From NCBI GenBank assembly GCA_965233585.1, contig CBDDTI010000313.1, positions 1-46,499 on the forward strand: 46,499 bases of DNA, in the 5' to 3' direction. Position 1 is the stretch's first letter. Every line of letters begins with the position of its first letter. The notes beneath the pieces were generated by a model. It did not search any database, was not told the origin of the DNA, and worked only from the letters and a program-made list of their open reading frames with translations. The translations under genes and the position numbers were made by a program. Positions 13,211-34,572 of the stretch are shown in pieces. The stretch comes from a bacterium (GTDB lineage Bacteria > SAR324 > NAC60-12).

Positions 13211-13233
13211 ACAAGTAGTTTTTTAGCATTGGC

Positions 13234-13473: not shown

Positions 13474-14427
13474 GAGCCATGATGCAAACCATCTTCAGCT
13501 GAGGTCCCATGGCTCCAAGAGAAGAACTGATGACTGAAGGCTGCTGATGTGCTGAGATCAGAAAAAGCTGCTGAGGCACATGGTGCTCAAGAGACTGAGA
13601 TGCTGAAAACAGACTAGCTCAGAGGCTGACATGATATTTGTTCTACTGTGTCTAAGGCCAGGTTTACCTCCTGCAAAACCATTAATTAATTATAAATAAT
13701 TAATTAGCAATTGTTGAGGGGTGGGTTCCTCACACTAGACATTAAGGTGCAAGCTCAGAAACTTGAGAGGCTCAGCCCAGATGAAGCCACCAAGCTGAGG
13801 ATCACAAAGGCCTTCAGCTGAAGATTCATGGCTGTAGCCTTGGCTGCCATGGAAGCACATGGAAGCACATGCCATTAATTGATTATGTTTTAGTTTACCC
13901 TAAAATTTGAAAAATAACCAGAAACAAAAACATGACTAAACTTGATTGAGAAGCCAGGAAGCAAATGCAGTTGCAACTGGGTGCTCAGAGTGCTGAAGCT
14001 TGGATGTTGGATGCTGCTGTGGTAGCATGGAGGCTCAGAACAGCCCTAGATGAAAACTTAGAAAGGAATGTCACCAACTGAGGGTGGCCAACACTCAGTG
14101 CCAAGGCTTAGTAGTGGCTGCAGCCAACCTAAGTATGCCTAGTATGCTAAGTTATATAAATTCTACTTTAGATAGCCTTTCCCATGGGTGGCCTAGATCC
14201 TTAGCTAAGCATTAATTAGTAGTGACAACATCCTCCCCTGATCATGCTAAGTCAAATCTGAGTGATTGCAGCCAGCTCCAAGCCACTTTTTCACCCAGTG
14301 CCTCTGAAATCTGATGCTGTTGAAGAGCTGATGCATGCTGAGAATACATAAAGTAGACAAAAATCATGACCAAGTCATGGCTGAGGGTTGCTTAGGCTGT
14401 GCCAAGCTTCTAAAAAGTAGAAGTCAC

Positions 14428-16020
14428 CTAAGCCCCATCAGAAGTGCATCTGCTGAATCTTACTGTGCTTGCTGAGATAGATGCAGATGATGTAGCCCTG
14501 AGACTTTTCTTCACATCTTCAGGTCCTGCCAGGGGGAACAGTATAAGGACAAGGTCAGCTACATGGGCACTGCACTAAGAAGAACCATTACAATGTCCAG
14601 CATTAGCCATTACTTATGCTAAGTAACTAAAGTAATTAGTTAATACTTTAACTATTCTAAACCCCAACAACAACCAGCAGCAGTGCCAAAAAAAACTAGT
14701 TCAAAAAAACAATGGCAACAACAACAGAAACAGCAGCATTGACACATTTTCCCTGCCAGCTGTTTGCCATGGCTTGTGATGTTTCCAAAAAATAGGTAAT
14801 ATGTTAATTACCTAGGTTCATCGTCAAGCTAGTGTTCATCCTCAGGTATTACCTGAACCCTCTGGCTTCTCAATCCTTTGCTTCTTGCTGAGACCAGGAG
14901 GCTCAGAAACATCCTGGGCATCTTTCTGCATTTTCTGATGCAGCTCCAGCAAAGTCTGAGGGCTCAGACCAATAGCTGCCATCTGATGCAGAAGATCCTT
15001 AGCCTGCTGTTCTTTTAGCTTCCTCAGTTCCTCCTGAGCCTTTGCCATCTCTTCCTCCTCCTTCTTCTGAGCCAGGAAACCTTTCAGCTTCTCCTGAGCA
15101 TCTAAGATGCCAAGCCTGAGCTGACATAAGACACCTTGCTCCTCAGCCATCTGCTGGGCATCTTTGAAGATCCTCTCCATAGTGGCATCCTGAGCAGCAT
15201 AGGCTTCCTCAACAAGCAGAAGCTTCTGAGAGAGGATGGCTTCCAGCTGCTCCACATCTGAGACATCAGGACTAAGGTCCATCTCCTTCAGCTGATTGAT
15301 AGCCTGGCTGATGCCATTCTCAGGGTCAATCTTAGCAAGCAATGACTTGCAGTACCCCTGAGAAAAGGTGGGGTCATCAGTCTGGGCAGCTATAGCAAAG
15401 GTAGCAGCTTCAGGTGGCTGAGAACGTGCAGCATCAGCTTCAGCTTGAGGTTGCTGACAAGAAGGAGGCTTAGGTGGCTTCAGTCTGTGCTTGAACTGAG
15501 CTGTCCAGTAAGGTTTTGAGGAGATTGACTTCTGCCAAGGCAATGGGGTCATGTTGAGAATCACCTGATAATACTGAGCAATGACTCTCTGAGGCCACCC
15601 ATTGACATCCTGCAAGGTTCCAAAAGATGTGAAGAAAACTTTCAATCAGATATTAAAACTTAGTAAATAATTAATTAATTAATCAATTCATTGATGAAGG
15701 CCATGCACCCATGCTCAGAGACACAAAGAACAAATGCATGCACACATGTTCAAACCCATGTCCTTGCAGGAATTGCACCCATTCTGAAATGGGATCCTGC
15801 TGAGTTTCACCTTAGCATTGCACTTAGGACAAGCAACATCAGGCTCTCCCTCATAGCGAGGGTACCTGATGATCCTCTCAGTGCTTGATCCATGAGCAAA
15901 GAGGTCATCCACTGAGGGAAAGCTTTCTGGAATGAGCTTGAGCTGAGCATGGCCACCCTTGACAGTATATTCCATGCCAGATGGAACTAATTCTGAGTGA
16001 TCCTTAGTGATCCTTGCCAT
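14428..16020 (-). CDS. Accessory gene A2, paralog of gene A (exons 16020-15763, 15609-14853, 14525-14428; ~370 aa)
   Basis: The 101-aa and 267-aa ORFs join via the same GA-AG intron. A phase-1 TCAG|GTAATA donor matches a phase-1 CTGGCAG|GA acceptor giving ...EGSGPEDVKKSLR...; CPKC-x14-CNSC; LSKKQR NLS-like motif. Confidence 0.65.
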
Positions 16021-16550
16021 GGCTCAGTTGCTGAGTGTCAGCTGGCTGAGTTGAAAGGCAAATAGGCTCACCATGTGCTTGAGTTCACTAATCAGCTGAG
16101 GAATCACATAAGCATGCATTGCTGAAGAAAACAGAGCACAAGTCCAAGACCATGGGCAAGCTGAGAGCCAACCCCACACCCCCAGAACCAACCCTGAGTC
16201 CTCTCTAAGCATTGCCATCATTCTGAGCATCTTCTAAGCCACATCTCTGATTGTTCTCTGTGAGCATTCTAAGCCACACCCTCAGGTCCTGCCAGGGGGA
16301 AAAATATAAGAACAAGGTCAACTACATGGGCACTGAACCAAGAAGAACCATCAATTAATTACAATGTATTAATTACAAATAGTTCTTGTGAAACTAGTTC
16401 AAAAATAAACAATGGCAACAACAACAGAACCAACTCAGCCCATCAAATGCATTTTTCCACTGCCAGCTGTTGTCATGGCATGTGATGACACAAATCAGTC
16501 TGAGCTGAGATATTGCAAAGCATGCCTAAGTCTTTTGCTCAGGCTTCAAA

Positions 16551-17834
16551 TTAGTCAAACTCCTCCTCAACATAGACCTCCACCATCTCAGAAGAATGCT
16601 GAGGCTCTTCAAGTCTTGCCTTCTTGGTGGCTGGACCACAAGGTTCAGACTCAGCACTGGCAGCCTCAGAAGGAACTGCAGCTTCAGGCTGAGGAGGCTC
16701 AGAAACTTGATCTTCAGGAATTGGCTTCTGAGCATCTTTCTGCATTTTCTGATGCAGCTCCAGCAAAGTCTGAGGGCTCAGACCAATAGCTGCCATGTGA
16801 TGCAGAATATCCTGAGCCTGATCTTCTTTTAGCTTCCTCAGTTCCTCCTGAGCCTTTGCCATCTCTTCTTCCTCCTTCTTCTCCTGAGCCACTCTAGCAA
16901 CTCCAGCATCAACCCTTCCCTGAGCTTCAATGAATTCTTTCCTGAGCTCAGTCAAGACAGCTTGCTCCTTAGACATCTTCTCAGCATCTTGTAGGAGCAT
17001 AGCCATAGTCTCATCCTGAGCTGCATAGGCTTTGTCAAGGAGCACAAGCCTCTCAGAGATGAGGACTCCCAGTCTCCCCAAATCTGAGAGATCAGAACCC
17101 TCGATGTCCACACCCTTCAGCTGAGACATGGCATCTGCCATGCTGTTCTCAGGGTCAATAGTGGCAAGAATTGACTTGCAGTACCCCTTAGCAAAGAAAA
17201 GCTGGGCCTTCTCAGCATCTGCAGCCTCAAGTGACTGCTCAGGTGACTGAGAATGTTCATCACCTTGAAGTTGCTGAGAAGAAGGATGCCCAGCAGGCTC
17301 AGCTGGCCTCTGCTTGTGCTGAAACTGAGCTGTCCCAAAAGATGCTGAGGTTAACCTCTGCCAAGGCAATGGGGCCATGTTGAGAATCATCTGGTAATAC
17401 TGAGCAATGACTTTCTTAGGCCACCCATTGACATCCTGCAAGGTTCCAAAAGATGTGAAGAAAACTTTCAATCAGATATTAAAACTTAGTAATTAATTAA
17501 TTAATTAAGCAATTCATTGATGAAGGCCATGCACCCATGCTCAGAGACACAAAGAACAAATGCATGCACACATGTTCAAACCCATGTCCTTGCAGTAAAT
17601 GCACCCATTCTGAAATGGGATCCTGCTGAGTTTCACCTTAGCATTGCACCCAGGACAAGCAACATCAGGCTCTCCATGATAGCGAGGGTAGCTGATAACA
17701 TGCTCAGGGTTTGATCCCTCACCAAAGAGGTCATCCACTGAGGGAAAGCTTTGAGGAGTGAGTTTGAGCTGAGCATGGCCACCTCTGATAGTATATTCCA
17801 TGCCAAGTGGAACTGAGTCAGAGAGCTTTGCCAT
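16551..17834 (-). CDS. Accessory gene A, copy 2 (exons 17834-17589, 17435-16551)
   Basis: Near-identical to 194-1476 at offset ~16357; only ~3 aa differences. Confidence 0.7.
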
Positions 17835-18005
17835 GGCTCAGTTGCTGAGTTGCAGATGGCTGAGCTGGAAGGCAAAAAGTTGACTATGTGCTGGAGTTCA
17901 CTAAGCAGCTGAGGAATCACACAAGCATGCCTTCCTGCACAAATTTGAGCACAAGTCCAAGACCATGGGCAAGCTGAGAACCAACCCCATACCCCCAGAA
18001 CCAAC

Positions 18006-18553
18006 CCTGAGCTTTCCAGTAATCTTGTAAACTGCTGAAAGAGTCTTTGGCTGCCTTCATCTCCTCACAGTATTTCAGCTTAGTAGCAGCTGAGACTTCA
18101 ACTCTTTTCATTTGTGAGCCTGGCACTTTTCTGTTTGTTGACTTAGGGCTGGCTGTTGGAGATCTCTGAGGCTCTCTTCTCATCAGCGTCCTCTTTTTTT
18201 GTGCTACCTCAACAAGCTCATTTTCAGTTGTGGCTACCTCAGCTTCTAACTCAGCATGCTTTCTGAGTGCATCATTCCTTTCCTGGAGAGCATCTTGCTG
18301 GAATCTGCTGAGCCTCTGCCTCTTGAAAGGCTGAGGTTGCAGATGTAATGGCACTGGCTGAGCTTCTTTCTTCTGGCCTGCTGAGCCAAAGAACTTGTTC
18401 AAGCCATACTGGACCTTTCCTGAGCTGGGTGGTGAAGACTCAGGGCTGCCAGTGGCATCCTTCTCACGTGTAGCTTCAGCTCCTCCACCTCTAGCTCTGG
18501 CTTGCTGAGTCACCTTAGTCAGCAAGAAAGAAGCCAACATGAAGGTAGCCCAT
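18006..18553 (-). pseudogene. 5' fragment of the pogo-like transposase, truncated within the first HTH and fused to the gene A upstream region
   Basis: Matches 25478-26021 up to YWKAQ; 4-bp insertion near the start; junction at a shared CCTGAG. Confidence 0.85.
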
Positions 18554-19957
18554 GAGTGGCTGAGTTACTCAATAATATGAATGTTTGGATGGTACTCTAT
18601 TGTGCCCAACAACTTTTTTGGGGTTGAAAAAAAAACCTTCTCCACCTTTCTTTGAGTAAAGCTGGTGCATTTACTTTAGAAAGCCATATTTGTGTTAAAA
18701 ATCTAAATGCAAGGTTTTCCAAATAATTAGATGCCTTATTAAACCCTTATTAAAAAACAGCATCCAGACAATTTTCAAGGTGGTACCCCATGAGTGGCTG
18801 AGTTACTCAATAGTATGAATGTTTGGATGGTACTCTATTGTGCCCAACAACTTTGGGTGTTGAAAAAAAACAAAAACCCTTTCTCCACCTTTCCTTTAGT
18901 AAAGCTGGTCCATTTACTTTAGGAAACCATATTTGTGATAAAGTTCTAAAACTCTAAAATGCAAGGTTTTCCAAATAATTAGATGCCTTATTAAACCCTT
19001 ATTAAAAAACAGCACCCAAACAATTTTTCAAGGTGGTACCCCATGAGTGGCTGAGTTACTCAATAGTATGAATGTTTGGATGGTACTCTATTGTGCCCAA
19101 CAACTTTGGGTGTTGAAAAAAAACAAAAACCCTTTCTCCACCTTTCCTTTAGTAAAGCTGGTCCATTTACTTTAGGAAACCATATTTGTGATAAAGTTCT
19201 AAAACTCTAAAATGCAAGGTTTTCAAATAATTAGATGCCTTATTAAACCCTTATTAAAAAACAGCACCCAAACAATTTTTCAAGGTGGTACCCCATGAGT
19301 GGCTGAGCTACTCAATAATATGAATGTTTGGATGGTACTCTATTGTGCCCAACAACTTTGGGTGTTGAAAAAAAACAAAACCCTTTTCTCCACCTTTCTT
19401 TGAGTAAAGCTGGTCCATTTACTTTAGGAAACCATATTTGTAATAAAGTTCTAAAACTCTAAAATGCAAGGTTTTCCAAATAATTAGATGCCTTATTAAA
19501 CCCTTATTAAAAAACAGCACCCAAACAATTTTTCAAGGTGGTACCCCATGAGTGGCTGAGCTACTCAATAATATGAATGTTTGGATGGTACTCTATTGTG
19601 CCCAACAACTTTGGGTGTTGAAAAAAAACAAAACCCTTTTCTCCACCTTTCTTTGAGTAAAGCTGGTCCATTTACTTTAGGAAACCATATTTGTGATAAA
19701 GTTCTAAAACTCTAAAATGCAAGGTTTTCCAAATAATTAGATGCCTTATTAAACCCTTATTAAAAAACAGCACCCAAACAATTTTTCAAGGTGGTACCCC
19801 ATGAGTGGCTGAGTTACTCAATAATATGAATGTTTGGATGGTACTCTATTGTGCCCAACAACTTTGGGTGTTGAAAAAACACCAAAACACACTTTCTCCA
19901 CCTTTCCTTTACTAAAGCTGATCCATTTGTTTTAGAAATAGATATTTGTGTTAAAGC
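18549..19957. repeat. Satellite array S2 (~6 monomers, mostly ~253 bp)
   Basis: Anchors at ~18565, 18803, 19055, 19308, 19561, 19814. Confidence 0.95.
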
Positions 19958-20589
19958 TGAGCTTCTTCATCTCCTAGCTGGTTCAATGAAAGATCCCAAA
20001 AGATATAAACATAATTTAACTATATAATGAATTGTATAATGAGTTTACCTCAAGCAGCTCAGATGCACAAAATTATACTCAAGTGCCAACAAGCTTCATC
20101 CCTGAGCAGCTGCATCTTAGTGACCAGAGCACTCAAGTTACTGAGTGGCTTCAAAAGGATGCTCAGGGTGAAGAGGAGCAAAGAAGTGAATGCAAGCCAT
20201 CCCTGAGTTTTGCAACATTGCATTCATGTTACAAGAGGCACATTTACCTACATAATAAAAAAATGTTGATAAAATAGAACATTGAAAACATGAAAATAGA
20301 CAACACTAAGCTGTGCCTAAGGTCAAGTTCAGCTGAGGAAAAAATGAGATTGAGGTCCTTCAGCCTCACTGCCAGGTCAATAGCATTGCAACCTCAAGTG
20401 CAGGTTTGGTGCAAAACAAAAAATACACTAAGAAAAGAGCTAGTTGCCTAATTAATTAATTAAGTAATTAATTAATCAAGTAATTACATCAAATAATTAC
20501 TAACTAATTAATTAATTACAGATGTTGAATACTGAGGCAGACTCTTTTTTCAAAAACGCTGCTCAGGTAAGCTGAGCTATTGTATTGTC

Positions 20590-20967
20590 TCAGCACTCAA
20601 TCTGAGCCTGTAGATCACTGAGGTGCCATTGCACCTCAGTTTCAGTGTTCCACTGAGAAAGTAGGTCAGGCTCAGCCACATCTGAGAGGTCTATGCTGCT
20701 AAGCACATTGAGCCTCCCAGCCTTGGTTCTGAGTCCTGATTCCCTGCTAGAAGCACTGAGCCAATGGTGCTTAGCACAGCTGAAAGGATGTGCTGAGTCC
20801 ACCACCTCTTCCATGCTTTTCTCAGTGTGGGCCCAAAGTCCTCTTAGCTCAGGTCGCTGAGTGTTCTCCACCACCAGTGTCTCCTGCCTGAGCTCTTCCT
20901 CTGAGGCAGTCCTGCTGTAGAGTGCCTGAGCTGGCTGAAAAGGTTTCAAGAAACCAACAGACCTCAA
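20590..20967 (-). CDS. Copy of the 125-aa hypothetical ORF
   Basis: One amino-acid difference from 12318-12695. Confidence 0.5.
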   Translation of the reverse strand: MRSVGFLKPFQPAQALYSRTASEEELRQETLVVENTQRPELRGLWAHTEKSMEEVVDSAHPFSCAKHHWLSASSRESGLRTKAGRLNVLSSIDLSDVAEPDLLSQWNTETEVQWHLSDLQAQIEC

Positions 20968-21419
20968 CTAAAAACATCCAACAACATGATCCTCTTCACA
21001 AAAAAAGGAAACCAAATGAATTCAAGTACCCTGAGGAATCGATTGTACATGACACCCTCCCTGGTGGCTAAGATAGCAGTGCTCAGCAGCAAGTTCCACT
21101 CTGTGAACTGACCTTCTGGGTCCCAGTGGGAGACAGGTCCACTGAGAAGTGCCCAGCGCTTCTTCACTAAGAATTCTGTGAACAAAGCTGCACCACCTGC
21201 CTGAGGGTCAAACTCTTCAAAATGCTGCTTGAGGTGCCTCAGGGTGTCCCAGGTACTTCCCCCAGTCATATCCATCCTGAGCTCCATGGACCTGACCTTC
21301 TCTGAGATGAAGTCAAGCCTCTGCTGAGAATGGTCAGAAGCATACCAAAGGTCATCTCTGAGGTTCTGCAGAACCTGCACCAAGGTGCTGAGCTCAGTCT
21401 GGTGCACTGAAATTAACAA
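20964..21419 (-). CDS. Copy of the TELSTLVQ... ORF/exon, directly downstream of the transposase
   Basis: Identical core to 12692-13126. Confidence 0.5.
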   Translation of the reverse strand: MLISVHQTELSTLVQVLQNLRDDLWYASDHSQQRLDFISEKVRSMELRMDMTGGSTWDTLRHLKQHFEEFDPQAGGAALFTEFLVKKRWALLSGPVSHWDPEGQFTEWNLLLSTAILATREGVMYNRFLRVLEFIWFPFFVKRIMLLDVFS

Positions 21420-21471
21420 ATCCTAAGCCTGCCCAGTGCAAAGCTGCAAATCACTGTCTCTCAGTAGAGCT

Positions 21472-21974
21472 TCAGGCAGGTGCAGCTGATGTTGATGAGG
21501 TAGGTGCAGCTGAGCTCGAAGAAATAGGTGCTGAAGATGAGCTTGCTGAGATTGGCAGGGTAGCTGACTTGAGCAGCTGCTCCAGATCCTCAGGGCCTGT
21601 GCTGAGATAAGGCAGCTTGTGAGCCTTAGCAGCCTCTGAGTGCAGGTGGTACCTGAGGCATTTGTAGGCATCACAGTTCAGGCAGCCTGACTGCCACCTG
21701 CACTTAGAACATTTGCCCGAGGAATCCTTCAGGAGCTTGACCTTGTGAACTGAGTCCTGAGAAAGGTTTTTCCAGGTGAATCTCACTGAGTTCTTGTCCA
21801 GCTGGTCCTTGGCAGTCTGGAGGTGATGTCAGTCAGCTTGCTCAGCCTTTTCTCAGCCTTGCTTTTTTGCTGAGCAATGCCTGCCATTTGAAACTCAAGC
21901 TTAGCATGTCTGACTTTGGCATCTTCAATGAGTGCATTTGCCTGAGCCACCAGCTTAGGCACAATAGTGGCCAA
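21472..21974 (-). CDS. C-terminal part of the transposase-Ulp1 locus: coiled coil + CSKCRWQSGCLNC putative Zn-binding motif + Ser/Ala tail
   Basis: 21783-21974 is in frame with the Ulp1 ORF across TGA 22016-22014; frameshift near 21825 leads into 21472-21786. Confidence 0.55.
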
Positions 21975-22013
21975 CCTGAGTTTCCAATCTTTCCAGCCAT
22001 TTTCAGGCCAGAC

Positions 22014-22901
22014 TCAAGGCCACTCACCCCTGAAAAGCCTCAGCTCTTGCTCCATGTAATGGAGCACATAGCAGCCACAAGCATTGCTGCCCACAGGCTG
22101 AGTGGCAATGTTGCTGGGGGGTGGGAGATTGAAATCAGGGTCAAGCAAGGTTCCCATGAGGATCTGCTGAGGATGAGATTCTTCATGCTCTTTGCTGAGG
22201 GAGTCATACCTCCTCCAAGTGATGGGTTGCCCAGGCCCTGCCCTCTGAGCTGCCAGTAAAGTCCAGTGAAACTGAGAATACACTGGAACCAAAAGAAGCT
22301 TGCAGTGCTGAGACCAGTATTTCTTGATGCCTTCCTTGAAGCCCTCCAGCTGCTCAGGATTGCCATCATTTTCAAGGATCAGCTTGCTGAGGATTGGGTC
22401 CACACAGTGAACTCCTAAGACTTCTGGGAGAGCAACATTAGCCCTGTCAAAGCACCATCTGAGAAGGGCCCAGCCAAGCCAAAGGTGCTGATCCTCCACC
22501 CCAGGGATTTCCTTAGGGCATGGGAGCACTGTGTGGATACTCCACTCCTTTGGGCTCAAGCCAACCTCATCTTCAGGATTGCAGCTCAGAAGGCTCAGCA
22601 TGAGGCTGAGATCTCTCTTGCTGAGCTGGGTCCACTTGGGCCACTTCACCCTCAGAACTTCAGCCTTAGAGCTCTTGAGCTCCACCCATTCAGGCTCAAC
22701 ATGATATGCACCTGAGTCAGTGACACAGATGTACATACCTGAGGTGCTGCCATAAGTTAGCTTGCCATGCTTGCCAAAGCTGAGCTTGCCTGCTGCTTCT
22801 GAAACAATCACAGCTTCCTGCTTGAGAAGGGGATCCTCAGGTGGTGCTTCCTCAGCAGGTGGTGCTTCCTCAGCAGGTGGTGCTTCCTCAGGTGGAGGCA
22901 A
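22014..22901 (-). CDS. Ulp1/SENP-like (peptidase C48) cysteine protease domain
   Basis: LLLVPV..QFHWTLL, RYDSL and Q...NACGCYVLHYM match the His-Asp-(Gln)-Cys signature of C48 SUMO proteases. Confidence 0.85.
   Translation of the reverse strand: MPPPEEAPPAEEAPPAEEAPPEDPLLKQEAVIVSEAAGKLSFGKHGKLTYGSTSGMYICVTDSGAYHVEPEWVELKSSKAEVLRVKWPKWTQLSKRDLSLMLSLLSCNPEDEVGLSPKEWSIHTVLPCPKEIPGVEDQHLWLGWALLRWCFDRANVALPEVLGVHCVDPILSKLILENDGNPEQLEGFKEGIKKYWSQHCKLLLVPVYSQFHWTLLAAQRAGPGQPITWRRYDSLSKEHEESHPQQILMGTLLDPDFNLPPPSNIATQPVGSNACGCYVLHYMEQELRLFRGEWP
22838..22895. repeat. Coding minisatellite, 18-bp unit x3 (EEAPPA)
   Basis: GGTGGTGCTTCCTCAGCA repeated. Confidence 0.85.
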
Positions 22902-22993
22902 TGGTGGTGCATCAGAAAGGTGCTGCTTGGAGCCAGCCTTGACTAAGGCTTTAGCTTCTGATGTTTTCTTATTTTTTCTTCAAGTTCTTAAGC

Positions 22994-25096
22994 TTAGCTG
23001 ATGGCTTGTTCTTCATGGAAGCTTTGTTCTTGATGGAAGCTTTGAATGCTAGGGAGAATTTTTTTCTTAGGCTTGCCTTTCTGCCTGGCCTCAGGCTGGA
23101 GCTCAGCCAAAGCTTCATGTCTGCTCATGTCTGAGAGTTTCTGAGCATTTTTTTGCACAAGTTTGCTCTTATGCTTCCTCAGCAGCTTTCTGAGCTTCCT
23201 CTGCCTTTCCCTCTTAGCAACCCCTCTCTCTTTCTTGCTTTGGTACTCAGCAGTCCCCATTCTTCTGATTTGGGCTCTTCTGAGGGAAGGGTGAATCCTC
23301 AGGGACAAGGAGTTTTGAAGCTCTAGTTCCAAGTCCTCAGCAATGCCATCACAGATCTCTGGCTGGAGCTCTTCCTCAGTGAAGTCCTTCTCATCCTCAG
23401 GGTGGAAATAGTCCCAGACTTGGAGGTCTGAGATGTGCTTTGCTGTGCTGCTCAGATTCCAATCTGCCTTTACAGGCACTCCCTCAGCATCTCTCCACTT
23501 GAGCCTGTCTCTGAGCCACTCAGGACTGTACCTCTTGGTGCCAACCTCTAAGCCCATCTCCTTAGCCCAGCTCTGAGACAGGAGTTCTACAAGCCTCCCT
23601 GAGGCTGGATCAGGCCTGTAGACCAGGATCCCATTCCTCACTGCAGCTCTGAGAACCCATTCATCTTTGAGGTTCTTCTCAGCCATGGCTTCTTGAGCTG
23701 CCACAACTGCAGTGACAATTTGTAAGGGGCCAACTTTCCAAACTGAGTGCTCAGCTTTTCTTTGGGCCTGCCACTGGGCTCTGAGATCAATGAGCTTGTG
23801 TCTCACTAAGGCCTTGAACTGCTTAGCAAAATCAGTGTCAGTGATTTGCAACTTAGAGGTGCACTTCTCAGCCACAAGGCAGCTTAACTGATTTGCTAAG
23901 GCCATGGACTCAGTGGCTGAGTCACTGAACACTGAGGAGAAGCAATCCCTCATCCAAATGGATGCAGGGTACTGGGCAGCTTGAGCCTGGATGCTCCAGC
24001 TGAGGATAACTGAGTCCACATTGGCTGCAGGCTGCTGCATGATCTCAATCTTAGACATGAGCTCAGGGTGGCTCTGCCTCAGCCTCCTGTAGGGCAGCAT
24101 GATTCTCCCAGCTGAGTTTCCCTGAGACCTGGTGATGACCTTCTCACCCACTTTGAAGGTTTCATCACTGAGCCATGTGCCACTCTCTGAGATGTTGCTC
24201 AGTCTGGCCCATTCACCTGGCACAACTAACAGCCCTTTGCCAACTGAGCCAATGATCTCCTGAGACTCATCAGCATAAACTGAGTGCAGGAGCTGCCTGG
24301 CTTCATAAGTGATCCTGTATCTATCCTCCCCTGAGATTCCAATGAGAGTTGTGGACCCTGGCTGAGGCAAAGCTGGCTTGGCTGCTGCTGCTGAGGGCTG
24401 AGTTGAGCTTGCTGCATCTTTCTGAGTGCTGGCTTCTGCATCTTGCTGAGGGCTGGCTGGGACCATTTGCTCAGCATCTCCTGGAGCAGGGCTGTCTGAG
24501 CCAAAGAGACATTCCTCAGCTGGTGGAGCTGAATCAAAGCTGGCCTGCTTCACCAAAGAATCTTGCTCAGGTTGGCTGGCTGGAGGGCTGCTGGCTGCTG
24601 ATGCAAAGCTGAGCTGCCTCACTACTGACCCCTTGGGTGATGACTCAAAGCTCAGCTTTCTTTGTGGCTGAGGTGTGGCTGGTACAAGGGGCCCTGCCAT
24701 CATGTCAGGCCCATGCTCTGAGTGCATGGCTTCACTGATGGCTAGCCTGACTGAAGAGTAGTCCTTGACATCAGCTGAGGCATGCAGTTCCTCCTCAGCA
24801 AAGACAGCTCTTCTACCTGTAGCCTTAGCCCACAAAGGCACCTGATCAGAGAATCCAATGGCCAACTGAGACCTTGCTGAAATGAACTGGGCTGGGCTGC
24901 TGAGCCTGTTGCTGTCAGCTAATGTCTGCTGAGATGCACATGTTGCTAGCCACAGTGTGTGGTCAAACTCTTGCCAGGTCAGCTTGGTCCTGGTTTGGGA
25001 TTCTACCTGAGAGATGTTTGTAACTAGCTCAGTGGACATGTACTTAGCATCAAGCCATTTGACCAGCTGAGTCTTATTTTTTCTTGTAACCATCAC
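22994..25096 (-). CDS. pogo/Tc5 DDE_1 catalytic domain (DD35D)
   Basis: GFSDQVPLW (D1, ~24846), RYRIT, WMRDCFSS (D2, ~23946), CTSKLQITD...FK (D3, ~23838); 35 residues lie between D2 and D3. Confidence 0.8.
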   Translation of the reverse strand: MMVTRKNKTQLVKWLDAKYMSTELVTNISQVESQTRTKLTWQEFDHTLWLATCASQQTLADSNRLSSPAQFISARSQLAIGFSDQVPLWAKATGRRAVFAEEELHASADVKDYSSVRLAISEAMHSEHGPDMMAGPLVPATPQPQRKLSFESSPKGSVVRQLSFASAASSPPASQPEQDSLVKQASFDSAPPAEECLFGSDSPAPGDAEQMVPASPQQDAEASTQKDAASSTQPSAAAAKPALPQPGSTTLIGISGEDRYRITYEARQLLHSVYADESQEIIGSVGKGLLVVPGEWARLSNISESGTWLSDETFKVGEKVITRSQGNSAGRIMLPYRRLRQSHPELMSKIEIMQQPAANVDSVILSWSIQAQAAQYPASIWMRDCFSSVFSDSATESMALANQLSCLVAEKCTSKLQITDTDFAKQFKALVRHKLIDLRAQWQAQRKAEHSVWKVGPLQIVTAVVAAQEAMAEKNLKDEWVLRAAVRNGILVYRPDPASGRLVELLSQSWAKEMGLEVGTKRYSPEWLRDRLKWRDAEGVPVKADWNLSSTAKHISDLQVWDYFHPEDEKDFTEEELQPEICDGIAEDLELELQNSLSLRIHPSLRRAQIRRMGTAEYQSKKERGVAKRERQRKLRKLLRKHKSKLVQKNAQKLSDMSRHEALAELQPEARQKGKPKKKILPSIQSFHQEQSFHEEQAIS

Positions 25097-26021
25097 TCTT
25101 CAAGATAGTGTCTTTCCTGACTTCTCTTTCCTTAGCATCTGCCAGAAGCTCAGCTCTATGTAGAGCAGAAATATCACTCAGCTGAGCTTGGTTTCTAAGC
25201 TCATTGGCTGTGAGCTGCAGCCTACCAAGAAACTCAGCAAGCAAATCTTGCTTAGATATGGTGTGACCACATGCTCTTTCAATGCTGAGCCACTGCTTCA
25301 TTTTTGAGATGATGTCTGAGAATGGAACCTTTCTGCCACCTCCTGAAGCTCTTTTCCTCTTGGAGGTCTGATGCACAGGCTTGCATTTGAGGTCCTTCTC
25401 AGCTACAAGAACTTTCCAATGCTCTTCCTTAGCCAAGATGTTCTGAAGAGATCTCTTTGCAATGCCAAACTTCCCCACCTGAGCTTTCCAGTAATCTTGT
25501 AAACTGCTGAAAGAGTCTTTGGCTGCCTTCATCTCCTCACAGTATTTCAGCTTAGTAGCAGCTGAGACTTCAACTCTTTTCATTTGTGAGCCTGGCACTT
25601 TTCTGTTTGTTGACTTAGGGCTGGCTGTTGGAGATCTCTGAGGCTCTCTTCTCATCAGCTTCCTCTTTTTTTGTGCTACCTCAACAAGCTCATTTTCAGT
25701 TGTGGCTACCTCAGCTTCTAACTCAGCATGCTTTCTGAGTGCATCATTCCTTTCCTGGAGAGCATCTTGCTGGAATCTGCTGAGCCTCTGCCTCTTGAAA
25801 GGCTGAGGTTGCAGATGTAATGGCACTGGCTGAGCTTCTTTCTTCTGGCCTGCTGAGCCAAAGAACTTGTTCAAGCCATACTGGACCTTTCCTGAGCTGG
25901 GTGGTGAAGACTCAGGGCTGCCAGTGGCATCCTTCTCAGGTGTAGCTTCAGCTCCTCCACCTCTAGCTCTGGCTTGCTGAGTCACCTTAGTCAGCAAGAA
26001 GCCAACATGAAGGTAGCCCAT
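25074..26021 (-). CDS. Transposase N-terminus: HTH-psq-like and CENP-B/Tc5-type HTH DNA-binding domains
   Basis: KRVEVSAATKLKY...KFGIAKRSLQNIL followed by KRKRASGGGRKVPF...MKQWLSIERACGHTISKQDL. Confidence 0.8.
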   Translation of the reverse strand: MGYLHVGFLLTKVTQQARARGGGAEATPEKDATGSPESSPPSSGKVQYGLNKFFGSAGQKKEAQPVPLHLQPQPFKRQRLSRFQQDALQERNDALRKHAELEAEVATTENELVEVAQKKRKLMRREPQRSPTASPKSTNRKVPGSQMKRVEVSAATKLKYCEEMKAAKDSFSSLQDYWKAQVGKFGIAKRSLQNILAKEEHWKVLVAEKDLKCKPVHQTSKRKRASGGGRKVPFSDIISKMKQWLSIERACGHTISKQDLLAEFLGRLQLTANELRNQAQLSDISALHRAELLADAKEREVRKDTILKSDGYKKK

Positions 26022-27372
26022 GAGTGGCTGAGTTACTCAATAATATGAATGTTTGGATGGTACTCTATTGTGCCCAACAACTTTTTTGGGGTTGAAAAAA
26101 ATAAAAAACCTTCTCCACCTTTCTTTGAGTAAAGCTGGTGCATTTACTTTAGAAAGCCATATTTGTGTTAAATCTAAATGCAAGGTTTTCCAAATAATTA
26201 GATGCCTTATTAAACCCTTATTAAAAAACAGCATCCAGACAATTTTTCAAGGTGGTACCCCATGAGTGGCTGAGTTACTCAATAGTATGAATGTTTGGAT
26301 GGTACTCTATTGTGCCCAACAACTTTGGGTGTTGAAAAAAAACAAAAACCATTTCTCCACCTTTCCTTTAGTAAAGCTGGTCCATTTACTTTAGGAAACC
26401 ATATTTGTGATAAAGTTCTAAAACTCTAAAATGCAAGGTTTTCCAAATAATTAGATGCCTTATTAAACCCTTATTAAAAAACAGCACCCAAACAATTTTT
26501 CAAGGTGGTACCCCATGAGTGGCTGAGTTACTCAATAGTATGAATGTTTGGATGGTACTCTATTGTGCCCAACAACTTTGGGTGTTGAAAAAAAACAAAA
26601 ACCCTTTCTCCACCTTTCCTTTAGTAAAGCTGGTCCATTTACTTTAGGAAACCATATTTGTGATAAAGTTCTAAAACTCTAAAATGCAAGGTTTTCAAAT
26701 AATTAGATGCCTTATTAAACCCGTATTAAAAAAACAGCACCCAAACAATTTTTCAAGGTGGTACCCCATGAGTGGCTGAGCTACTCAATAATATGAATGT
26801 TTGGATGGTACTCTATTGTGCCCAACAACTTTGGGTGTTGAAAAAAAACAAAACCCTTTTCTCCACCTTTCTTTGAGTAAAGCTGGTCCATTTACTTTAG
26901 GAAACCATATTTGTGATAAAGTTCTAAAACTCTAAAATGCAAGGTTTTCCAAATAATTAGATGCCTTATTAAACCCTTTTAAACAAAAACAGCACTGAGT
27001 TACCAAACAATTTTTCAAGGTGGTACCCCATGAGTGGCTGAGTTACTCAATAATATGAATGTTTGGATGGTACTCTATTGTGCCCAACAACTTTGGGTGT
27101 TGAAAAAAACAAAAACCCTTTCTCCACCTTTCCTTTACTAAAGCTGATCCACTTGTTTTAGAAATAGATATTTGTGTTAAAGCTGTAAAATGCAAGGTTT
27201 TCCAAATAATTAGATGCCTTATTAAACCATTATTAAAAACAGCACCCAAACAATTTTTCAAGGTGGTACTCCATGAGTGGCTGAGTTACTCAATAATATG
27301 AATGTTTGGATGGCACTCTATTGTGCCCAACAACTTTTAGGAGTGAAAAAAATATTTCTCCACCTTTCTTTG
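26017..27372. repeat. Satellite array S3 (~6 monomers) immediately upstream of the transposase ATG
   Basis: Anchors at ~26033, 26275, 26528, 26781, 27043, 27286. Confidence 0.95.
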
Positions 27373-27551
27373 GGCAAAGGCTCCAGGATGTCTGAGATGT
27401 CCAAGCTCTCAAGGACATTGAGTTCCTCAGCCTTGTGGTGGAGAGCTTTCTGCCTGCTGAGAGCTCCTTTGAAGTAATGAACTGCTGAGCTGTAGTAATT
27501 CTGAGCCATTGCACCAAGCTTGTCCTCAAAGGATTTGCTGAGCTTCTTCAT
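27318..27551 (-). CDS. Copy of the 77-aa hypothetical ORF
   Basis: One amino-acid difference from 11461-11694. Confidence 0.5.
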   Translation of the reverse strand: MKKLSKSFEDKLGAMAQNYYSSAVHYFKGALSRQKALHHKAEELNVLESLDISDILEPLPKERWRNIFFTPKSCWAQ

Positions 27552-28181
27552 CTCCTAGCTGGTTCAATGAAAGATCCCAAAAGATATAAACATAATTTAA
27601 CTATATAATGAATTGTATAATGAGTTTACCTCAAGCAGCTCAGATGCACAAAATTATACTCAAGTGCCAACAAGCTTCATCCCTGAGCAGCTGCATCTTA
27701 GTGACCAGAGCACTCAAGTTACTGAGTGGCTTCAAAAGGATGCTCAGGGTGAAGAGGAGCAAAGAAGTGAATGCAAGCCATCCCTGAGTTTTGCAACATT
27801 GCATTCATGTTACAAGAGGCACATTTACCTACATAATAAAAAAAAAATGTTGATAAAATAGAACATTGAAAACATGAAAATAGACAACACTAAGCTGTGC
27901 CTAAGGTCAAGTTCAGCTGAGGAAAAAATGAGATTGAGGTCCTTCAGCCTCACTGCCAGGTCAATAGCATTGCAACCTCAAGTGCAGGTTTGGTGCAAAA
28001 CAAAAAATACACTAAGAAAAGAGCTAGTTGCCTAATTGATTAATTAATTAATTAAGTAATTAATTAATCAATTAATTACATCAAATAATTACTAACTAAT
28101 TAATTAATTACAGATGTTGAATACTGAGGCAGACTCTTTTTTCAAAAACGCTGCTCAGGTAAGCTGAGCTATTGTATTGTC

Positions 28182-28532
28182 TCAGCACTCATTCTGAGCC
28201 TGTAGATCAGTGTTCCACTGAGAAAGTAGGTCAGGCTCAGCCACATCTGAGAGGTCTATGCTGCTAAGCACATTGAGCCTCCCAGCCTTGGTTCTGAGTC
28301 CTGATTCCCTGCTAGAAGCACTGAGCCAATGGTGCTTAGCACAGCTGAAAGGATGTGCTGAGTCCACCACCTCTTCCATGCTTTTCTCAGTGTGGGCCCA
28401 AAGTCCTCTTAGCTCAGGTCGCTGAGTGTTCTCCACCACCAGTGTCTCCTGCCTGAGCTCTTCCTCTGAGGCAGTCCTGCTGTAGAGTGCCTGAGCTGGC
28501 TGAAAAGGTTTCAAGAAACCAACAGACCTCAA
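28182..28532 (-). CDS. Copy of the 125-aa ORF with an in-frame 27-bp deletion (116 aa)
   Basis: Lacks ETEVQWHLS. Confidence 0.45.
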   Translation of the reverse strand: MRSVGFLKPFQPAQALYSRTASEEELRQETLVVENTQRPELRGLWAHTEKSMEEVVDSAHPFSCAKHHWLSASSRESGLRTKAGRLNVLSSIDLSDVAEPDLLSQWNTDLQAQNEC

Positions 28533-29038
28533 CTAAAAACATCCAACAACATGATCCTCTTCACAAAAAAAGGAAACCAAATGAATTCAAGTACCCTGAG
28601 GAATCGATTGTACATGACACCCTCCCTGGTGGCTAAGATAGCAGTGCTCAGCAGCAAGTTCCACTCTGTGAACTGAGCTTCTGGGTCCCAGTGGGAGACA
28701 GGTCCACTGAGAAGTGCCCAGCGCTTCTTCACTAAGAATTCTGTGAACAAAGCTGCACCACCTGCCTGAGGGTCAAACTCTTCAAAATGCTGCTTGAGGT
28801 GCCTCAGGGTGTCCCAGGTACTTCCCCCAGTCATATCCATCCTGAGCTCCATGGACCTGACCTTCTCTGAGATGAAGTCAAGCCTCTGCTGAGAATGGTC
28901 AGAAGCATACCAAAGGTCATCTCTGAGGTTCTGCAGAACCTGCACCAAGGTGCTGAGCTCAGTCTTAAGGCCCAGGAGGAAGATGAAGCAAAGAGCCAAG
29001 CCTGGTGTTGTTTTATGCTCCCAGGCAAAAACAAACAA
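28529..29038 (-). CDS. Copy of the TELSTLVQ... ORF/exon
   Basis: Same core as 12692-13126. Confidence 0.5.
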   Translation of the reverse strand: MFVFAWEHKTTPGLALCFIFLLGLKTELSTLVQVLQNLRDDLWYASDHSQQRLDFISEKVRSMELRMDMTGGSTWDTLRHLKQHFEEFDPQAGGAALFTEFLVKKRWALLSGPVSHWDPEAQFTEWNLLLSTAILATREGVMYNRFLRVLEFIWFPFFVKRIMLLDVFS

Positions 29039-30254
29039 GTAGTTTTTACCATTGGCCTAAGCAATTTTTAACAGCTGATCCAAGTATGGTACTGCTTGCT
29101 GCCAAGAAGCAAGCTGAGGTGCATGAATGACATCTGATAGCTGGCTGAGCCTAGCCTGTAGGTCCACTGAGGTACCACCTAGGGCTACCATCTGAGGAAT
29201 GAACAAAAACATGTTGAACCATGCAATCCAAGGACCCAAAAACAAGTTGTTATGTAGCTGAGATGCTAGCCAAGCTGATGCCTGTGCTGCAAGCAAGAGC
29301 CATGATGCAAACCATCTTCAGCTGAGGTCCCATGGCTCCAAGAGAAGAACTGATGACTGAAGGCTGCTGATGTGCTGAGATCAGAAAAAGCTGCTGAGGC
29401 ACATGGTGCTCAAGAGACTGAGATGCTGAAGACAGACTGGCTCAGAGGCTGACATGATATTTGTTCTACTGTGTCTAAGGCCAGGTTTACCTCCTGCAAA
29501 ACCATTAATTAATTAATTATAAATAATTAATTAGCAATTGTTGAGGGGTGGGTTCCTCACACTAGACATTAAGGTGCAAGCTCAGAAACTTGAGAGGCTC
29601 AGCCCAGATGAAGCCACCAAGCTGAGGATCACAAAGGCCTTCAGCTGAAGATTCATGGCTGTAGCCTTGGCTGCCATGGAAGCACATGGAAGCACATGCC
29701 ATTAATTGATTATGTTTTAGTTTACCCTAAAATTTGAAAAATAACCAGAAACAAACACATGACTAAACTTGATTGAGAAGCCAGGAAGCAAATGCAGTTG
29801 CAACTGGGTGCTCAGAGTGCTGAAGCTTGGATGTTGGATGCTGCTGTGGTAGCATGGAGGCTCAGAACAGCCCTAGATGAAAACTTAGAAAGGAATGTCA
29901 CCAACTGAGGGTGGCCAACACTCAGTGCCAAGGCTTAGTAGTGGCTGCAGCCAACCTAAGTATGCCTAGTATGCTAAGTTATATAAATTCTACTTTAGAT
30001 AGCCTTTCCCATGGGTGGCCTAGATCCTTAGCTAAGCATTAATTAGTAGTGACAACATCCTCCCCTGATCATGCTAAGTCAAATCTGAGTGATTGCAGCC
30101 AGCTCCAAGCCACTTTTTCACCCAGTGCCTCTGAAATCTGATGCTGTTGAAGAGCTGATGCATGCTGAGAATACATAAAGTAGACAAAAATCATGACCAA
30201 GTCATGGCTGAGGGTTGCTTAGGCTGTGCCAAGCTTCTAAAAAGTAGAAGTCAC

Positions 30255-31845
30255 CTAAGCCCCATCAGAAGTGCATCTGCTGAATCTTACTGTGCTTGCT
30301 GAGATAGATGCTGATGATGTAGCCCTGAGACTTTTCTTCACATCTTCAGGTCCTGCCAGGGGGAACAGTATAAGGACAAGGTCAGCTACATGGGCACTGC
30401 ACTAAGAAGAACCATTACAATGTCCAGCATTAGCCATTACTTATGCTAAGTAACTAAAGTAATTAGTTAATACTTTAACTATTCTAAACCCCAACAACAA
30501 CCAGCAGCAGTGCCAAAAAAAACTAGTTCAAAAAAACAATGGCAACAACAACAGAAACAGCAGCATTGACACATTTTCCCTGCCAGCTGTTTGCCATGGC
30601 TTGTGATGTTTCCAAAAAAAGTAGGTAATATGTTAATTACCTAGGTTCATCGTCAAGCTAGTGTTCATCCTCAGGTATTACCTGAACCCTCTGGCTTCTC
30701 AATCCTTTGCTTCTTGCTGAGACCAGGAGGCTCAGAAACATCCTGGGCATCTTTCTGCATTTTCTGATGCAGCTCCAGCAAAGTCTGAGGGCTCAGACCA
30801 ATAGCTGCCATCTGATGCAGAAGATCCTTAGCCTGCTGTTCTTTTAGCTTCCTCAGTTCCTCCTGAGCCTTTGCCATCTCTTCCTCCTCCTTCTTCTGAG
30901 CCAGGAAACCTTTCAGCTTCTCCTGAGCATCTAAGATGCCAAGCCTGAGCTGACATAAGACACCTTGCTCCTCAGCCATCTGCTGGGCATCTTTGAAGAT
31001 CCTCTCCATAGTGGCATCCTGAGCAGCATAGGCTTCCTCAACAAGCAGAAGCTTCTGAGAGAGGATGGCTTCCAGCTGCTCCACATCTGAGACATCAGGA
31101 CTAAGGTCCATCTCTTTCAGCTGATTGATAGCCTGGCTGATGCCATTCTCAGGGTCAATCTTAGCAAGCAATGACTTGCAGTACCCCTGAGAAAAGGTGG
31201 GGTCATCAGTCTGGGCAGCTATAGCAAAGGTAGCAGCTTCAGGTGGCTGAGAAGGTGCAGCATCAGCTTCAGCTTGAGGTTGCTGACAAGAAGGAGGCTT
31301 AGGTGGCTTCAGTCTGTGCTTGAACTGAGCTGTCCAGTAAGGTTTTGAGGAGATTGACTTCTGCCAAGGCAATGGGGTCATGTTGAGAATCACCTGATAA
31401 TACTGAGCAATGACTCTCTGAGGCCACCCATTGACATCCTGCAAGGTTCCAAAAGATGTGAAGAAAACTTTCAATCAGATATTAAAACTTAGTAATTAAT
31501 TAATTAATTAATTCATTGATGAAGGCCATGCACCCATGCTCAGAGACACAAAGAACAAATGCATGCACACATGTTCAAACCCATGTCCTTGCAGGAATTG
31601 CACCCATTCTGAAATGGGATCCTGCTGAGTTTCACCTTAGCATTGCACTTAGGACAAGCAACATCAGGCTCTCCCTCATAGCGAGGGTACCTGATGATCC
31701 TCTCAGTGCTTGATCCATGAGCAAAGAGGTCATCCACTGAGGGAAAGCTTTCTGGAATGAGCTTGAGCTGAGCATGGCCACCCTTGACAGTATATTCCAT
31801 GCCAGATGGAACTAATTCTGAGTGATCCTTAGTGATCCTTGCCAT
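30255..31845 (-). CDS. Accessory gene A2, copy 2 (spliced)
   Basis: Near-identical to 14428-16020; ORFs 31540-31845 and 30671-31474. Confidence 0.65.
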
Positions 31846-32375
31846 GGCTCAGTTGCTGAGTGTCAGCTGGCTGAGTTGAAAGGCAAATAGGCTCACCATG
31901 TGCTTGAGTTCACTAATCAGCTGAGGAATCACATAAGCATGCATTGCGGAAGAAAACAGAGCACAAGTCCAAGACCATGGGCAAGCTGAGAGCCAACCTC
32001 ACACCCCCAGAACCAACCCTGAGTCCTCTCTAAGCATTGCCATCATTCTGAGCATCTTCTAAGCCACATCTCTGATTGTTCTCTGTGAGCATTCTAAGCC
32101 ACACCCTCAGGTCCTGCCAGGGGGAAAAATATAAGAACAAGGTCAACTACATGGGCACTGAACCAAGAAGAGCCATCAATTAATTACAATGTATTAATTA
32201 CAAATAGTTCTTGTGAAACTAGTTCAAAAATAAACAATGGCAACAACAACAGAACCAACTCAGCCCATCAAATGCATTTTTCCACTGCCAGCTGTTGTCA
32301 TGGCATGTGATGACACAAATCAGTCTGAGCTGAGATATTGCAAAGCATGCCTAAGTCTTTTGCTCAGGCTTCAAA

Positions 32376-34470: not shown

Positions 34471-34572
34471 CAAGGTTCCAAAAGATGTGAAGAAAACTTT
34501 CAATCAGATATTAAAACTTAGTAATTAATTAATTAATTAATCAATTCATTGATGAAGGCCATGCACCCATGC

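Follow-up and report, generated by a model that had tools for sequence, protein, structure and literature searches.

A broken copy of a very large dinoflagellate gene family encoding a transposase-like protein, probably of the pogo group, with an Ulp1-type protease domain

A broken gene and its uninterrupted relatives

The DNA studied here is the contig CBDDTI010000313.1 (GenBank assembly GCA_965233585.1, filed under the bacterial lineage SAR324), taken at its full length of 46,499 nucleotides and called the window below. Its minus strand carries a broken gene of about 1,450 codons at 21472..26021, running from an ATG at 26021-26019 to a final stop at 21472-21474, as delimited by the list of open reading frames (ORFs) and by colinear tblastn alignments of the relatives P0067, P0068, P0069 and P0030. 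The window DNA is eukaryotic, and the gene is one copy of a family present at least in Symbiodiniaceae dinoflagellates. We read the locus (26021-21472, minus strand) as a pseudogene of this very large family, whose members most likely descend from a divergent cut-and-paste transposase of the pogo/Tc1-mariner group that acquired an Ulp1 protease; the probability that we attach to this reading is about 0.6.

Six successive minus-strand stop-to-stop frames make up the gene: 26036..25074 (320 amino acids, aa), 25099..22994 (701 aa), 23124..22969 (51 aa), 22979..22014 (321 aa), 22013..21783 (76 aa) and 21828..21472 (118 aa). In tblastn alignments, P0067 (1387 aa), P0068 (1430 aa) and P0069 (1464 aa) were colinear with the window from 26021 to 21514, P0030 was likewise colinear with the frames, and the alignments of the relatives switched frame at about 25077-25084, 23057-23067, 22972-22979 and 21816-21819. 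A preliminary description of the locus, made from its letters and ORFs, had joined the pieces into one contiguous minus-strand frame by assuming breaks at 25077-82, 23059-65, 22972-77 and ~21825 and one TGA; the colinear alignments bear out the single frame, and all of the breaks were found at these sites.

The first three frameshifts lie in runs of A visible in the minus-strand sequence, namely an A6 run at 25077..25082, an A7 run at 23059..23065 inside a Lys-rich linker, where residues 910-941 of P0068 fall on the third frame (23067-22972), and an A6 run at 22972..22977 at the end of the same linker; the frame change at the first and third of them is also seen with tblastn. The fourth, at 21816..21828, is a short deletion outside any homopolymer whose length is not a multiple of three: residues 260-692 of P0030 stop at 21819 and residues 697-810 restart at 21816 in another frame, the pattern is the same with P0068 and P0054, and four residues of P0030 and P0068 are absent from the window at this point. 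An in-frame TGA at 22014..22016, evident from the ORF list, stands where the relatives P0067 and P0068 have Ser (GEWP-S-VWP). With four frameshifts and one stop the window copy is a pseudogene, and it is a real one, beyond homopolymer miscalls, since the TGA is a substitution and the fourth frameshift is a deletion outside homopolymers. The rest of the frame is open and, segment by segment, 76-91% identical to P0067.

The broken gene is far beyond chance, because its 701-aa frame alone finds database relatives at E<=0.001, 66 of them of 385-1227 aa and 20 of 1232-1839 aa. All 20 longer relatives align across at least 59% of this frame. Species named among the relatives are Durusdinium trenchii, Symbiodinium natans and Symbiodinium sp. 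CCMP2592, joined by a 'Skav' EukProt model, so the source of the DNA is a Symbiodiniaceae-like dinoflagellate. In public records the members carry no more specific labels than 'unnamed protein product' and 'ubiquitin-like protease family profile domain-containing protein'. When the divergent member P0156 was used as a query for named relatives in other taxa, it gave 8 matches, none of them named. A family profile built from a shortened alignment and searched against 1.84 billion representatives, clustered at 50% identity, matched 1,667 clusters at E<=0.001 (1,020 at <=1e-10 and 346 at <=1e-30); many of the 1,667 are truncated forms, and those examined were the best 150 matches, all at E<=1e-52.

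Several relatives on many contigs are unspliced single ORFs of 1,387-1,475 aa that span the N-terminus through the Ulp1 domain to the Cys-rich tail, and P0067 (1387 aa) runs in one continuous frame through its Ulp1 domain. The preliminary description had taken the transposase-like part, the Ulp1 domain and the Cys-rich tail for one gene and had proposed tBLASTn for finding uninterrupted copies; such copies exist and hold all the parts in one ORF. Since uninterrupted relatives of this length occur in the Symbiodiniaceae data, the fusion is, judging from these ORFs, real and conserved, and intact members are predicted to be one protein of about 1,400-1,480 aa.

We also counted domains with four rough hidden Markov models (HMMs) for the N-terminus, the core, the Ulp1 domain and the Cys cluster, made from column ranges of the family alignment A1 that were picked by eye; once rows with little sequence in range were dropped, the HMMs kept 25, 27, 23 and 15 of the 27 rows, respectively. 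The count covered 225 collected proteins, including the sequences from which the HMMs were built. Among the collected proteins of at least 1,200 aa, 26 of 29 carried the N-terminus, core and Ulp1 domain in one chain. At a length of at least 1,000 aa (45 proteins), all four parts were found in 22, N-terminus, core and Ulp1 in 8, core, Ulp1 and Cys in 2, and N-terminus, core and Cys in 1, while 12 had the N-terminus and core only, many of them ending directly after the core. In A1 the transposase-like plus Ulp1 architecture is kept down to 29-35% identity.

Two observations concern single members. P0067, the closest long relative, stops short of the Cys-rich tail; its last residues are '…AGIAQQKTRLRKS', against '…AGIAQQKSKAEKRLSKL' in the window, at an A-rich stretch, and within the closest subfamily (P0067 and the window) none of the copies seen is fully intact. 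P0190 (1457 aa) has a WD40 beta-propeller (Pfam WD40, E 2.8e-49) ahead of the transposase-like and Ulp1 parts, which is either an artefact of the gene model or of ORF read-through, or a fusion with a host gene.

Domains of the family protein

Close to its start (25953..25970, minus strand) the window gene encodes RARGGG, an R-x-R-G-G-G motif recognised in A1, and RxRGG(G) occurs upstream of the PCNA-interacting (PIP) box in 24 of the 50 relatives that bear one. Both the C-terminal tails of ubiquitin-like proteins and the sites cut by CE-clan proteases have sequences like it, and one may speculate that the protein processes itself at RxRGG/G. Downstream of it, at 25860..25883 (minus strand), in a low-confidence, presumably flexible segment of the structural model, lies QYGLNKFF, which follows the pattern Qxx[LIMV]xx[FYW][FYW], the canonical definition of the PIP box. 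The motif was present in 50 of the 59 relatives whose N-terminus was covered, and several of the nine misses are degenerate forms of it. QYGLNKFF is therefore a putative PCNA-binding peptide. A PIP box is also mentioned for the Pogo DNA transposase of Drosophila in PMC4103810.

We then looked at the fold of this region. In an AlphaFold2 model of the first 315 residues (mean predicted local confidence, pLDDT, of 75), two helical bundles, residues 154-213 and 235-308 counted from the ATG (25098..25562, minus strand), reach a pLDDT of 88-96 and form what looks like a CENP-B-like bipartite helix-turn-helix; an invariant R..G.GRK..F....W...ER..GH segment sits between and within them. The best Foldseek match of the model in the PDB was CENP-B(1-129) on DNA (1hlv_A, probability 0.99, E 0.083, with a large root-mean-square deviation), and the Brinker DNA-binding domain came at rank 14 (probability 0.89, template-modelling (TM) score 0.70). 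According to PMC7386202, DNA-binding folds of the CENP-B and Brinker types are typical of pogo transposases.

The central part of the protein falls within the 701-aa frame, by which its residues are numbered. A beta-hairpin, GFSDQVPLWAK (24824..24862, minus strand; strand 80-92, pLDDT about 90), carries the candidate first catalytic aspartate, D85 (24845-24847); in A1, F83, D85 and P88 are at least 90% conserved and Q86 is invariant. The hairpin is followed by a variable Ser/Pro/Ala/Gln-rich insert at 24353..24712 (minus strand), probably disordered (pLDDT 30-38 over residues 130-260), which is poorly aligned and variable in length in A1 columns 640-810. Next comes an alpha/beta core, residues 250-565 (23405..24352, minus strand; pLDDT mostly 80-94), a candidate RNase H-like nuclease with three aspartates. 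Its motifs are RITYEARQ, GLLVVPGxWARLSNIS, QPAANVDS, WMRDCFS (with D385, 23945-23947) and CTSKLQITDTDFAKQFK (with D421, 23837-23839).

Across 78 diverse members, conservation reaches at least 90% at D362, D385 and D421; D85, D385 and D421 are all present in the window and at least 90% conserved. The interval between D385 and D421 is exactly 35 residues, and the TSxLQxxD motif (TSKLQITD) is conserved. The D-D35D aspartates claimed by the preliminary description are D85, D385 and D421, and 35 residues do separate the last two. Motifs such as FSDQ, WMRDCFS and CTSKLQITDTDFAKQFK resemble the pogo consensus, and the three residues may form the catalytic triad. Pogo transposases have a D-D-D triad whose last two aspartates are separated by 29-59 residues; for the Passer and Fot families PMC7386202 reports DD35D spacing.

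When the core model was compared with the PDB by Foldseek, the top ~45 matches were nearly all catalytic cores of retroviral integrases, along with Hermes and a polymerase exonuclease; the scores were weak (E about 0.1 or higher, probability <=0.72, TM score <=0.45). The same model gave nothing significant against the viral library. A feature search of the ESM Atlas with residues 250-600 returned 30 matches, all of which carry DDE_1 (best score 0.94, 193 of 256 features), and one set of these neighbours also carries HTH_Tnp_Tc5; we take them as a lead and not as proof. Zisupton/KDZ, Mutator, CACTA and Ginger were considered as identities of the core and rejected, no Pfam model match being reported for the core and all Atlas neighbours being DDE_1 proteins. 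Pfam also gives a sub-threshold match to TFIIE_alpha over the helix that follows the third aspartate (23678-23917, residues 395-474). Found in 2 of 21 and in 5 of 78 members, with a best E of 0.017, it recurs more often than any other weak match but is probably noise.

The second half of the protein contains a CE-clan/Ulp1 (C48)-like cysteine protease domain at 22017..22530 (minus strand). Its catalytic residues had been placed beforehand at H~22267, D~22204 and C~22078, and these positions are exact: His is encoded at 22266-22268, Asp at 22203-22205 and Cys at 22077-22079, with the oxyanion Gln in TQPVGSNACG. Against the PDB, the family profile matched 21 C48/CE chains at E 2.8e-7 to 0.012, headed by RickCE (2.8e-7), NopD (4.8e-7) and XopD (7.5e-7) and followed by SENP2, SENP1, SENP5 and ChlaDub2; the SENP1/2 matches ranged from 1e-6 to 1e-5. 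The catalytic columns are aligned in this comparison (HW / DS / Q..CG), and in RickCE, NopD and XopD the catalytic residues line up with FHWTLL, RYDSL and QPVGSNACG. The Peptidase_C48 profile of Pfam, which had been suggested as a check, was at or above its cut-off in four relatives (P0085, 27.8; P0086, 24.3; P0166, 22.2; P0080, 20.7 bits), but the protease frame of the window itself remained under the 20.7-bit cut-off (14.6 bits, E 0.03); a phmmer search of the PDB with this frame alone gave 0 matches. With a family profile reaching C48 structures at ~1e-7 and four relatives passing the Pfam cut-off, the proposed Ulp1 domain with an intact triad holds: by homology, the C-terminal module is a CE-clan/Ulp1 protease, and the window has kept its His, Asp, Gln and Cys.

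Behind the protease, a Cys cluster, KCSKCRWQSGCLNCDAYKC (21646..21714, minus strand), has the pattern C-x2-C-R-W-x-S-G-C-x2-C, is conserved in A1 columns 1825-1845 and was detected in 31 of the 225 collected proteins. The Cys-rich tail had no usable match in the ESM Atlas and, in Pfam, only CEBP_ZZ at E 0.013, below its cut-off; the cluster is a probable small zinc-binding module of no known family.

Surroundings of the gene and ancestry of the family

The window alternates between AT-rich satellite arrays (1904-11495, 18544-19956, 26012-27352 and 35297-46407) and GC-richer blocks. The satellite has about 34% G+C, unit variants of ~245, 200 and 253 nucleotides (nt), a 445-nt higher-order period and a single orientation, and Rfam had no match over the whole window, satellite included. 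The minus-strand satellite unit (…CTCATGGGGTACC…) extends over the first ~10 nt of the transposase-like ORF, which puts the start codon in the satellite junction.

The broken gene belongs to the block 19956-26020. Self-comparison showed that the part of this block past the stop codon, 19956-21400, shares 99.4% identity with 11680-13128 and 97.2% with 27537-28965. This 1.45-kb stretch directly downstream of the pseudogene contains two minus-strand ORFs, 20964..21422 (152 aa) and 20590..20967 (125 aa), neither significantly matched by Pfam, and an AT-only, palindromic, low-complexity (TAATTAAT)n-like stretch at 20441-20518, which recurs at about 12174-12246 and 28033-28110. At the other end, 25478-26100, that is the first ~181 codons and the adjoining satellite, is 99.0% identical to 18006-18632 (blastn). 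A second partial copy of the gene, in which these ~181 codons are joined to unrelated sequence, was located by tblastn at 17956..18537 (minus strand; 99% identical to 25478-26021). The corresponding chimeric ORF, 17917..18564 on the minus strand, runs from the transposase-like gene into the unrelated sequence and is therefore evidence of recombination between two kinds of block. The neighbouring blocks (11.5-18.5 kb, 27.4-35.3 kb and the start of the window) contain, at 13128-18006, 28965-35290 and 1-1900, tandem and diverged copies, 70-85% identical, of an unrelated unit of ~1.8 kb with two minus-strand ORFs that have no Pfam match: one of 98-102 aa that contains Cys (such as 17541..17837 and 15715..16023) and one of 267-306 aa with a helix rich in Glu and Lys (such as 16551..17471 and 14842..15645).

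The ends of the block were examined for traces of insertion. At the left junction, the position at which satellite passes into the shared block is not the one seen in the other two blocks; at the right junction, satellite sequence sets in a few bases from the ATG, with ~95 nt of one of its units lost and nothing duplicated. The window copy shows recombination and segmental duplication and not a clean insertion. For the family, mobility is suggested by its abundance and its many broken forms.

Some of what was found around the gene weighs against a transposon. Terminal inverted repeats, a target-site duplication, a relic spliced leader and a poly(A) tail were all absent from the block ends, and the copy-specific DNA (about 21400-26017) is little more than the coding sequence and abuts the satellite and the shared block. 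The family may instead be a host gene family, that is, one that is not, or no longer, a transposon: a massively duplicated family derived from a transposase, for example a PCNA-tethered deSUMOylase or deubiquitinase associated with chromatin or replication, with the window copy as a decayed paralogue in a tandemly duplicated, satellite-rich region. We hold this to be possible, if on the unlikely side. It agrees with the missing repeats and target duplication at this copy, with copy-specific DNA that is essentially coding, with same-strand tandem gene blocks that recombine with the copy (the chimeric ORF at 17917-18564 and the shared 1.45-kb block) and with the strong conservation of the PIP box and other non-catalytic motifs; dinoflagellate gene families are, moreover, often very large. 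However, 1,667 clusters at 50% identity, with many forms truncated or frameshifted, are what one expects of mobile elements more than of a host gene, and the search for terminal repeats is a weak test here because the 5' end is cut at the ATG by the satellite junction, so their absence from this copy says little. The candidate catalytic aspartates are also at least 90% conserved, unlike those of many domesticated pogo genes (PMC7386202).

The descent of the core is the other matter to be weighed. Rather unlikely in our view, it might not be pogo-derived but belong to a separate, unmodelled family of RNase H-like or other nucleases, its likeness to pogo being convergent and the whole a new superfamily-level transposase or nuclease with an Ulp1 domain. 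Many results count against pogo ancestry. In 180 Pfam scans of 179 different proteins (the window frames and 173 different relatives), DDE_1 and DDE_3 matched 0 of the 6 window frames, 0 of 24 relatives and 0 of 50 representatives, DDE_1 was not among the 25 families listed of the 53 matched by 78 further members, and HTH_Tnp_Tc5, CENP-B_N and HTH_psq matched neither the window frames nor any relative scanned. The check by DDE_1 and HTH_Tnp_Tc5 profiles that the preliminary description had proposed was thus negative at the thresholds used. With loose thresholds DDE_1 appeared in 1 of 21 members, P0028 (E 0.11, 12.5 bits against a cut-off of 22), whose residues 179-260 fell on profile positions 97-177; in the window frame this stretch is equivalent to about residues 400-481 and takes in D421. 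Neither of two family profiles found a transposase among PDB sequences, that of A1 matching C48 proteases and noise and that of alignment A7 Lys/Glu-rich helices. The Foldseek matches of the core are integrases rather than mariner, Mos1 or Tc1-type structures, all Foldseek E-values exceed 0.001, and the CENP-B match is itself weakened by its E-value of 0.083 and its large deviation. As for the Atlas search, in the tool's own calibration shuffled proteins reach a score of 0.9 in 4-10 of 100 cases, and parts of proteins are uncalibrated. The layout of the core is also odd: the D85 hairpin stands ~170 residues upstream, across the disordered insert, so that D85 precedes D385 by ~300 residues, which is unusual, and the actual catalytic residues could be others, such as E266 and D362, two further acidic positions that are conserved.

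Against a core of other origin stand the best match of the N-terminal model, which is the DNA-binding domain of CENP-B, a hallmark fold of pogo, the 30 of 30 Atlas neighbours with DDE_1, one set of them with HTH_Tnp_Tc5 too, and the PIP box that the family has in common with Drosophila Pogo; the TSxLQxxD motif and the 35-residue spacing fit pogo as well, the latter as given in PMC7386202. A pogo/Tc1-mariner-group ancestry of the transposase-like part is thus likely, at about two in three. The initial identification of a pogo/CENP-B-type DD35D transposase is partly supported, by the CENP-B fold match, the weak RNase H-like matches, the DDE_1 neighbours in the Atlas and the motifs and their spacing, but not at the level of Pfam, where neither DDE_1 nor a helix-turn-helix model reached its threshold.

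Whichever ancestry is preferred, the single-ORF architecture and its conservation, the homology of the protease with its residues intact, the PIP motif, the size of the family and the dead state of a copy that has no terminal repeats are demonstrated. It is highly improbable that the window gene is intact and that its breaks arose from errors of sequencing or assembly at homopolymers. A6-A7 runs, a typical site of long-read errors, do hold three of the four frameshifts, and the remainder of the frame is open and close to P0067, but a substitution made the TGA at 22014-22016, the fourth frameshift comes from the loss of several bases outside homopolymers, with four residues of three relatives missing, and the copy has no 5' flank of its own. 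That the transposase-like and protease parts are separate adjacent genes, fused only by the frame correction, is already refuted as far as the ORF structure can tell, since the different frames of the parts in the window and the many database entries with one part only are set against unspliced single ORFs from many contigs, the 26 of 29 long proteins with N-terminus, core and Ulp1 in one chain, and a linker that is conserved and colinear.

Possible working of the protein and known systems

An intact member carries, in order, the RxRGGG motif, the PIP box, a coiled coil, the CENP-B-like bipartite helix-turn-helix and a candidate RNase H-like core whose three aspartates lie in pogo-like motifs (FSDQ ... 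RDCFS - 35 residues - TSKLQITD), and then the Lys-rich linker, a PPLPPP stretch, the CE-clan Ulp1-type protease, a second coiled coil and the C4 cysteine cluster. If the family is a pogo-like transposon lineage, the helix-turn-helix region would bind the DNA of the element and the aspartate triad would cut and join it, while the PIP box would tie the protein to PCNA at sites of replication or repair, as reported for Drosophila Pogo. There the protease could strip SUMO or another ubiquitin-like modifier from nearby PCNA, chromatin, silencing factors or the protein itself, and its removal may favour transposition or the repair that follows; the preliminary description had suggested removal of SUMO from chromatin at the binding sites of the element itself. 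One point that tells against this scheme is that the best PDB matches of the protease mix deSUMOylases (SENPs) with deubiquitinases and deneddylases at similar E-values, and the profile match cannot tell whether the substrate would be SUMO, ubiquitin or NEDD8.

A bolder version, which we think improbable, would see a dinoflagellate-wide IS630-Tc1-mariner/pogo lineage that has diverged beyond the reach of present models, is tethered to PCNA by its PIP box and uses its own CE-clan protease to strip SUMO, ubiquitin or NEDD8 from PCNA or chromatin close by at replication forks, licensing excision, integration or recombinational repair, and that may trim its own N-terminus at RxRGG/G. If a PCNA-tethered pogo lineage with such a protease were confirmed, it would be the first pogo-type element with a built-in protease for ubiquitin-like modifiers and a major unannotated component of Symbiodiniaceae genomes.

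The interest of these results lies in the family, with its PIP box, CENP-B-like region, three-aspartate core and Ulp1 domain in one chain, rather than in the dead and recombined copy of the window. As it comprises 1,667 representative clusters and its core has no Pfam model, the family is a large unannotated fraction of dinoflagellate coding potential, and recognising it would spare hundreds of fragments from being called separate genes. A conserved PCNA-binding motif beside a protease of the SUMO/ubiquitin type also suggests a concrete and testable reason for the repeated recruitment of such proteases by mobile elements: they may serve to alter the modifications that the replication clamp or the chromatin carries where transposition takes place.

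The preliminary description knew of no pogo transposase with an Ulp1 domain in the same polypeptide, and our literature search, within the portions of text it covered, agrees, having found no description of a pogo-Ulp1 fusion or of an Ulp1-bearing transposase in dinoflagellates or Symbiodiniaceae; in term searches of the available text of the pogo/Tc1-mariner surveys PMC7386202 and PMC7325037, the words Ulp1, protease and SUMO were absent. As far as this search shows, an Ulp1 domain in the same chain as a pogo-like transposase is new; the proteins themselves are already public under uninformative names. An Ulp1 domain within a transposase chain is documented for Ginger1, and Ulp1 genes on Mutator-type elements, in PMC2836005.

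Among known proteases, the CE-clan enzymes SENP1/2, Ulp1, XopD, NopD, RickCE and ChlaDub belong by profile to the same fold family and have the same His-Asp-Cys residues and oxyanion Gln; unlike the family described here, in which the domain is embedded in a transposase-like protein of 1,450 aa, they are stand-alone enzymes or bacterial effectors. In many Ulp1-bearing Mutator-like elements the protease is a captured separate gene and not part of the transposase chain. Such elements (KI-MULEs/Kaonashi and VANDAL, in melon, rice and Arabidopsis) likewise amplify an Ulp1-type protease with a DNA transposon (PMC2836005), but their transposase is of another superfamily. Ginger1, from Hydra and others, does join a DDE-type transposase to a C-terminal Ulp1 domain (pfam02902) in one polypeptide, but its catalytic part is a readily recognisable Gypsy-integrase-like domain with a zinc finger and a GPY/F motif (PMC2836005), whereas the family here has a CENP-B-like N-terminus, pogo-like core motifs and a different host range.

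The pogo superfamily (Tigger, pogoR, Passer, Fot, Lemi and Mover, with the domesticated relatives CENP-B, POGZ and JRK) differs in several respects: the present family is missed by the Pfam DDE_1 and helix-turn-helix models, is about three times longer, has an insert of ~170 residues between the hairpin of the first Asp and the rest of the core, bears the Ulp1 protease and the Cys cluster, and shows no terminal repeats at the window copy. In the available text of the 2020 survey PMC7386202, the Chromista matches to pogo are in Stramenopiles and Rhizaria, and alveolates are not named. The likeness to pogo lies in a bipartite helix-turn-helix that best matches CENP-B(1-129), in three aspartates of which the last two enclose 35 residues (a spacing given in PMC7386202) and TSxLQxxD, in DDE_1 in 30 of 30 language-model neighbours of the family core and, for Drosophila Pogo, in a PIP box (PMC4103810), which in the family described here, unlike in pogo, is N-terminal.

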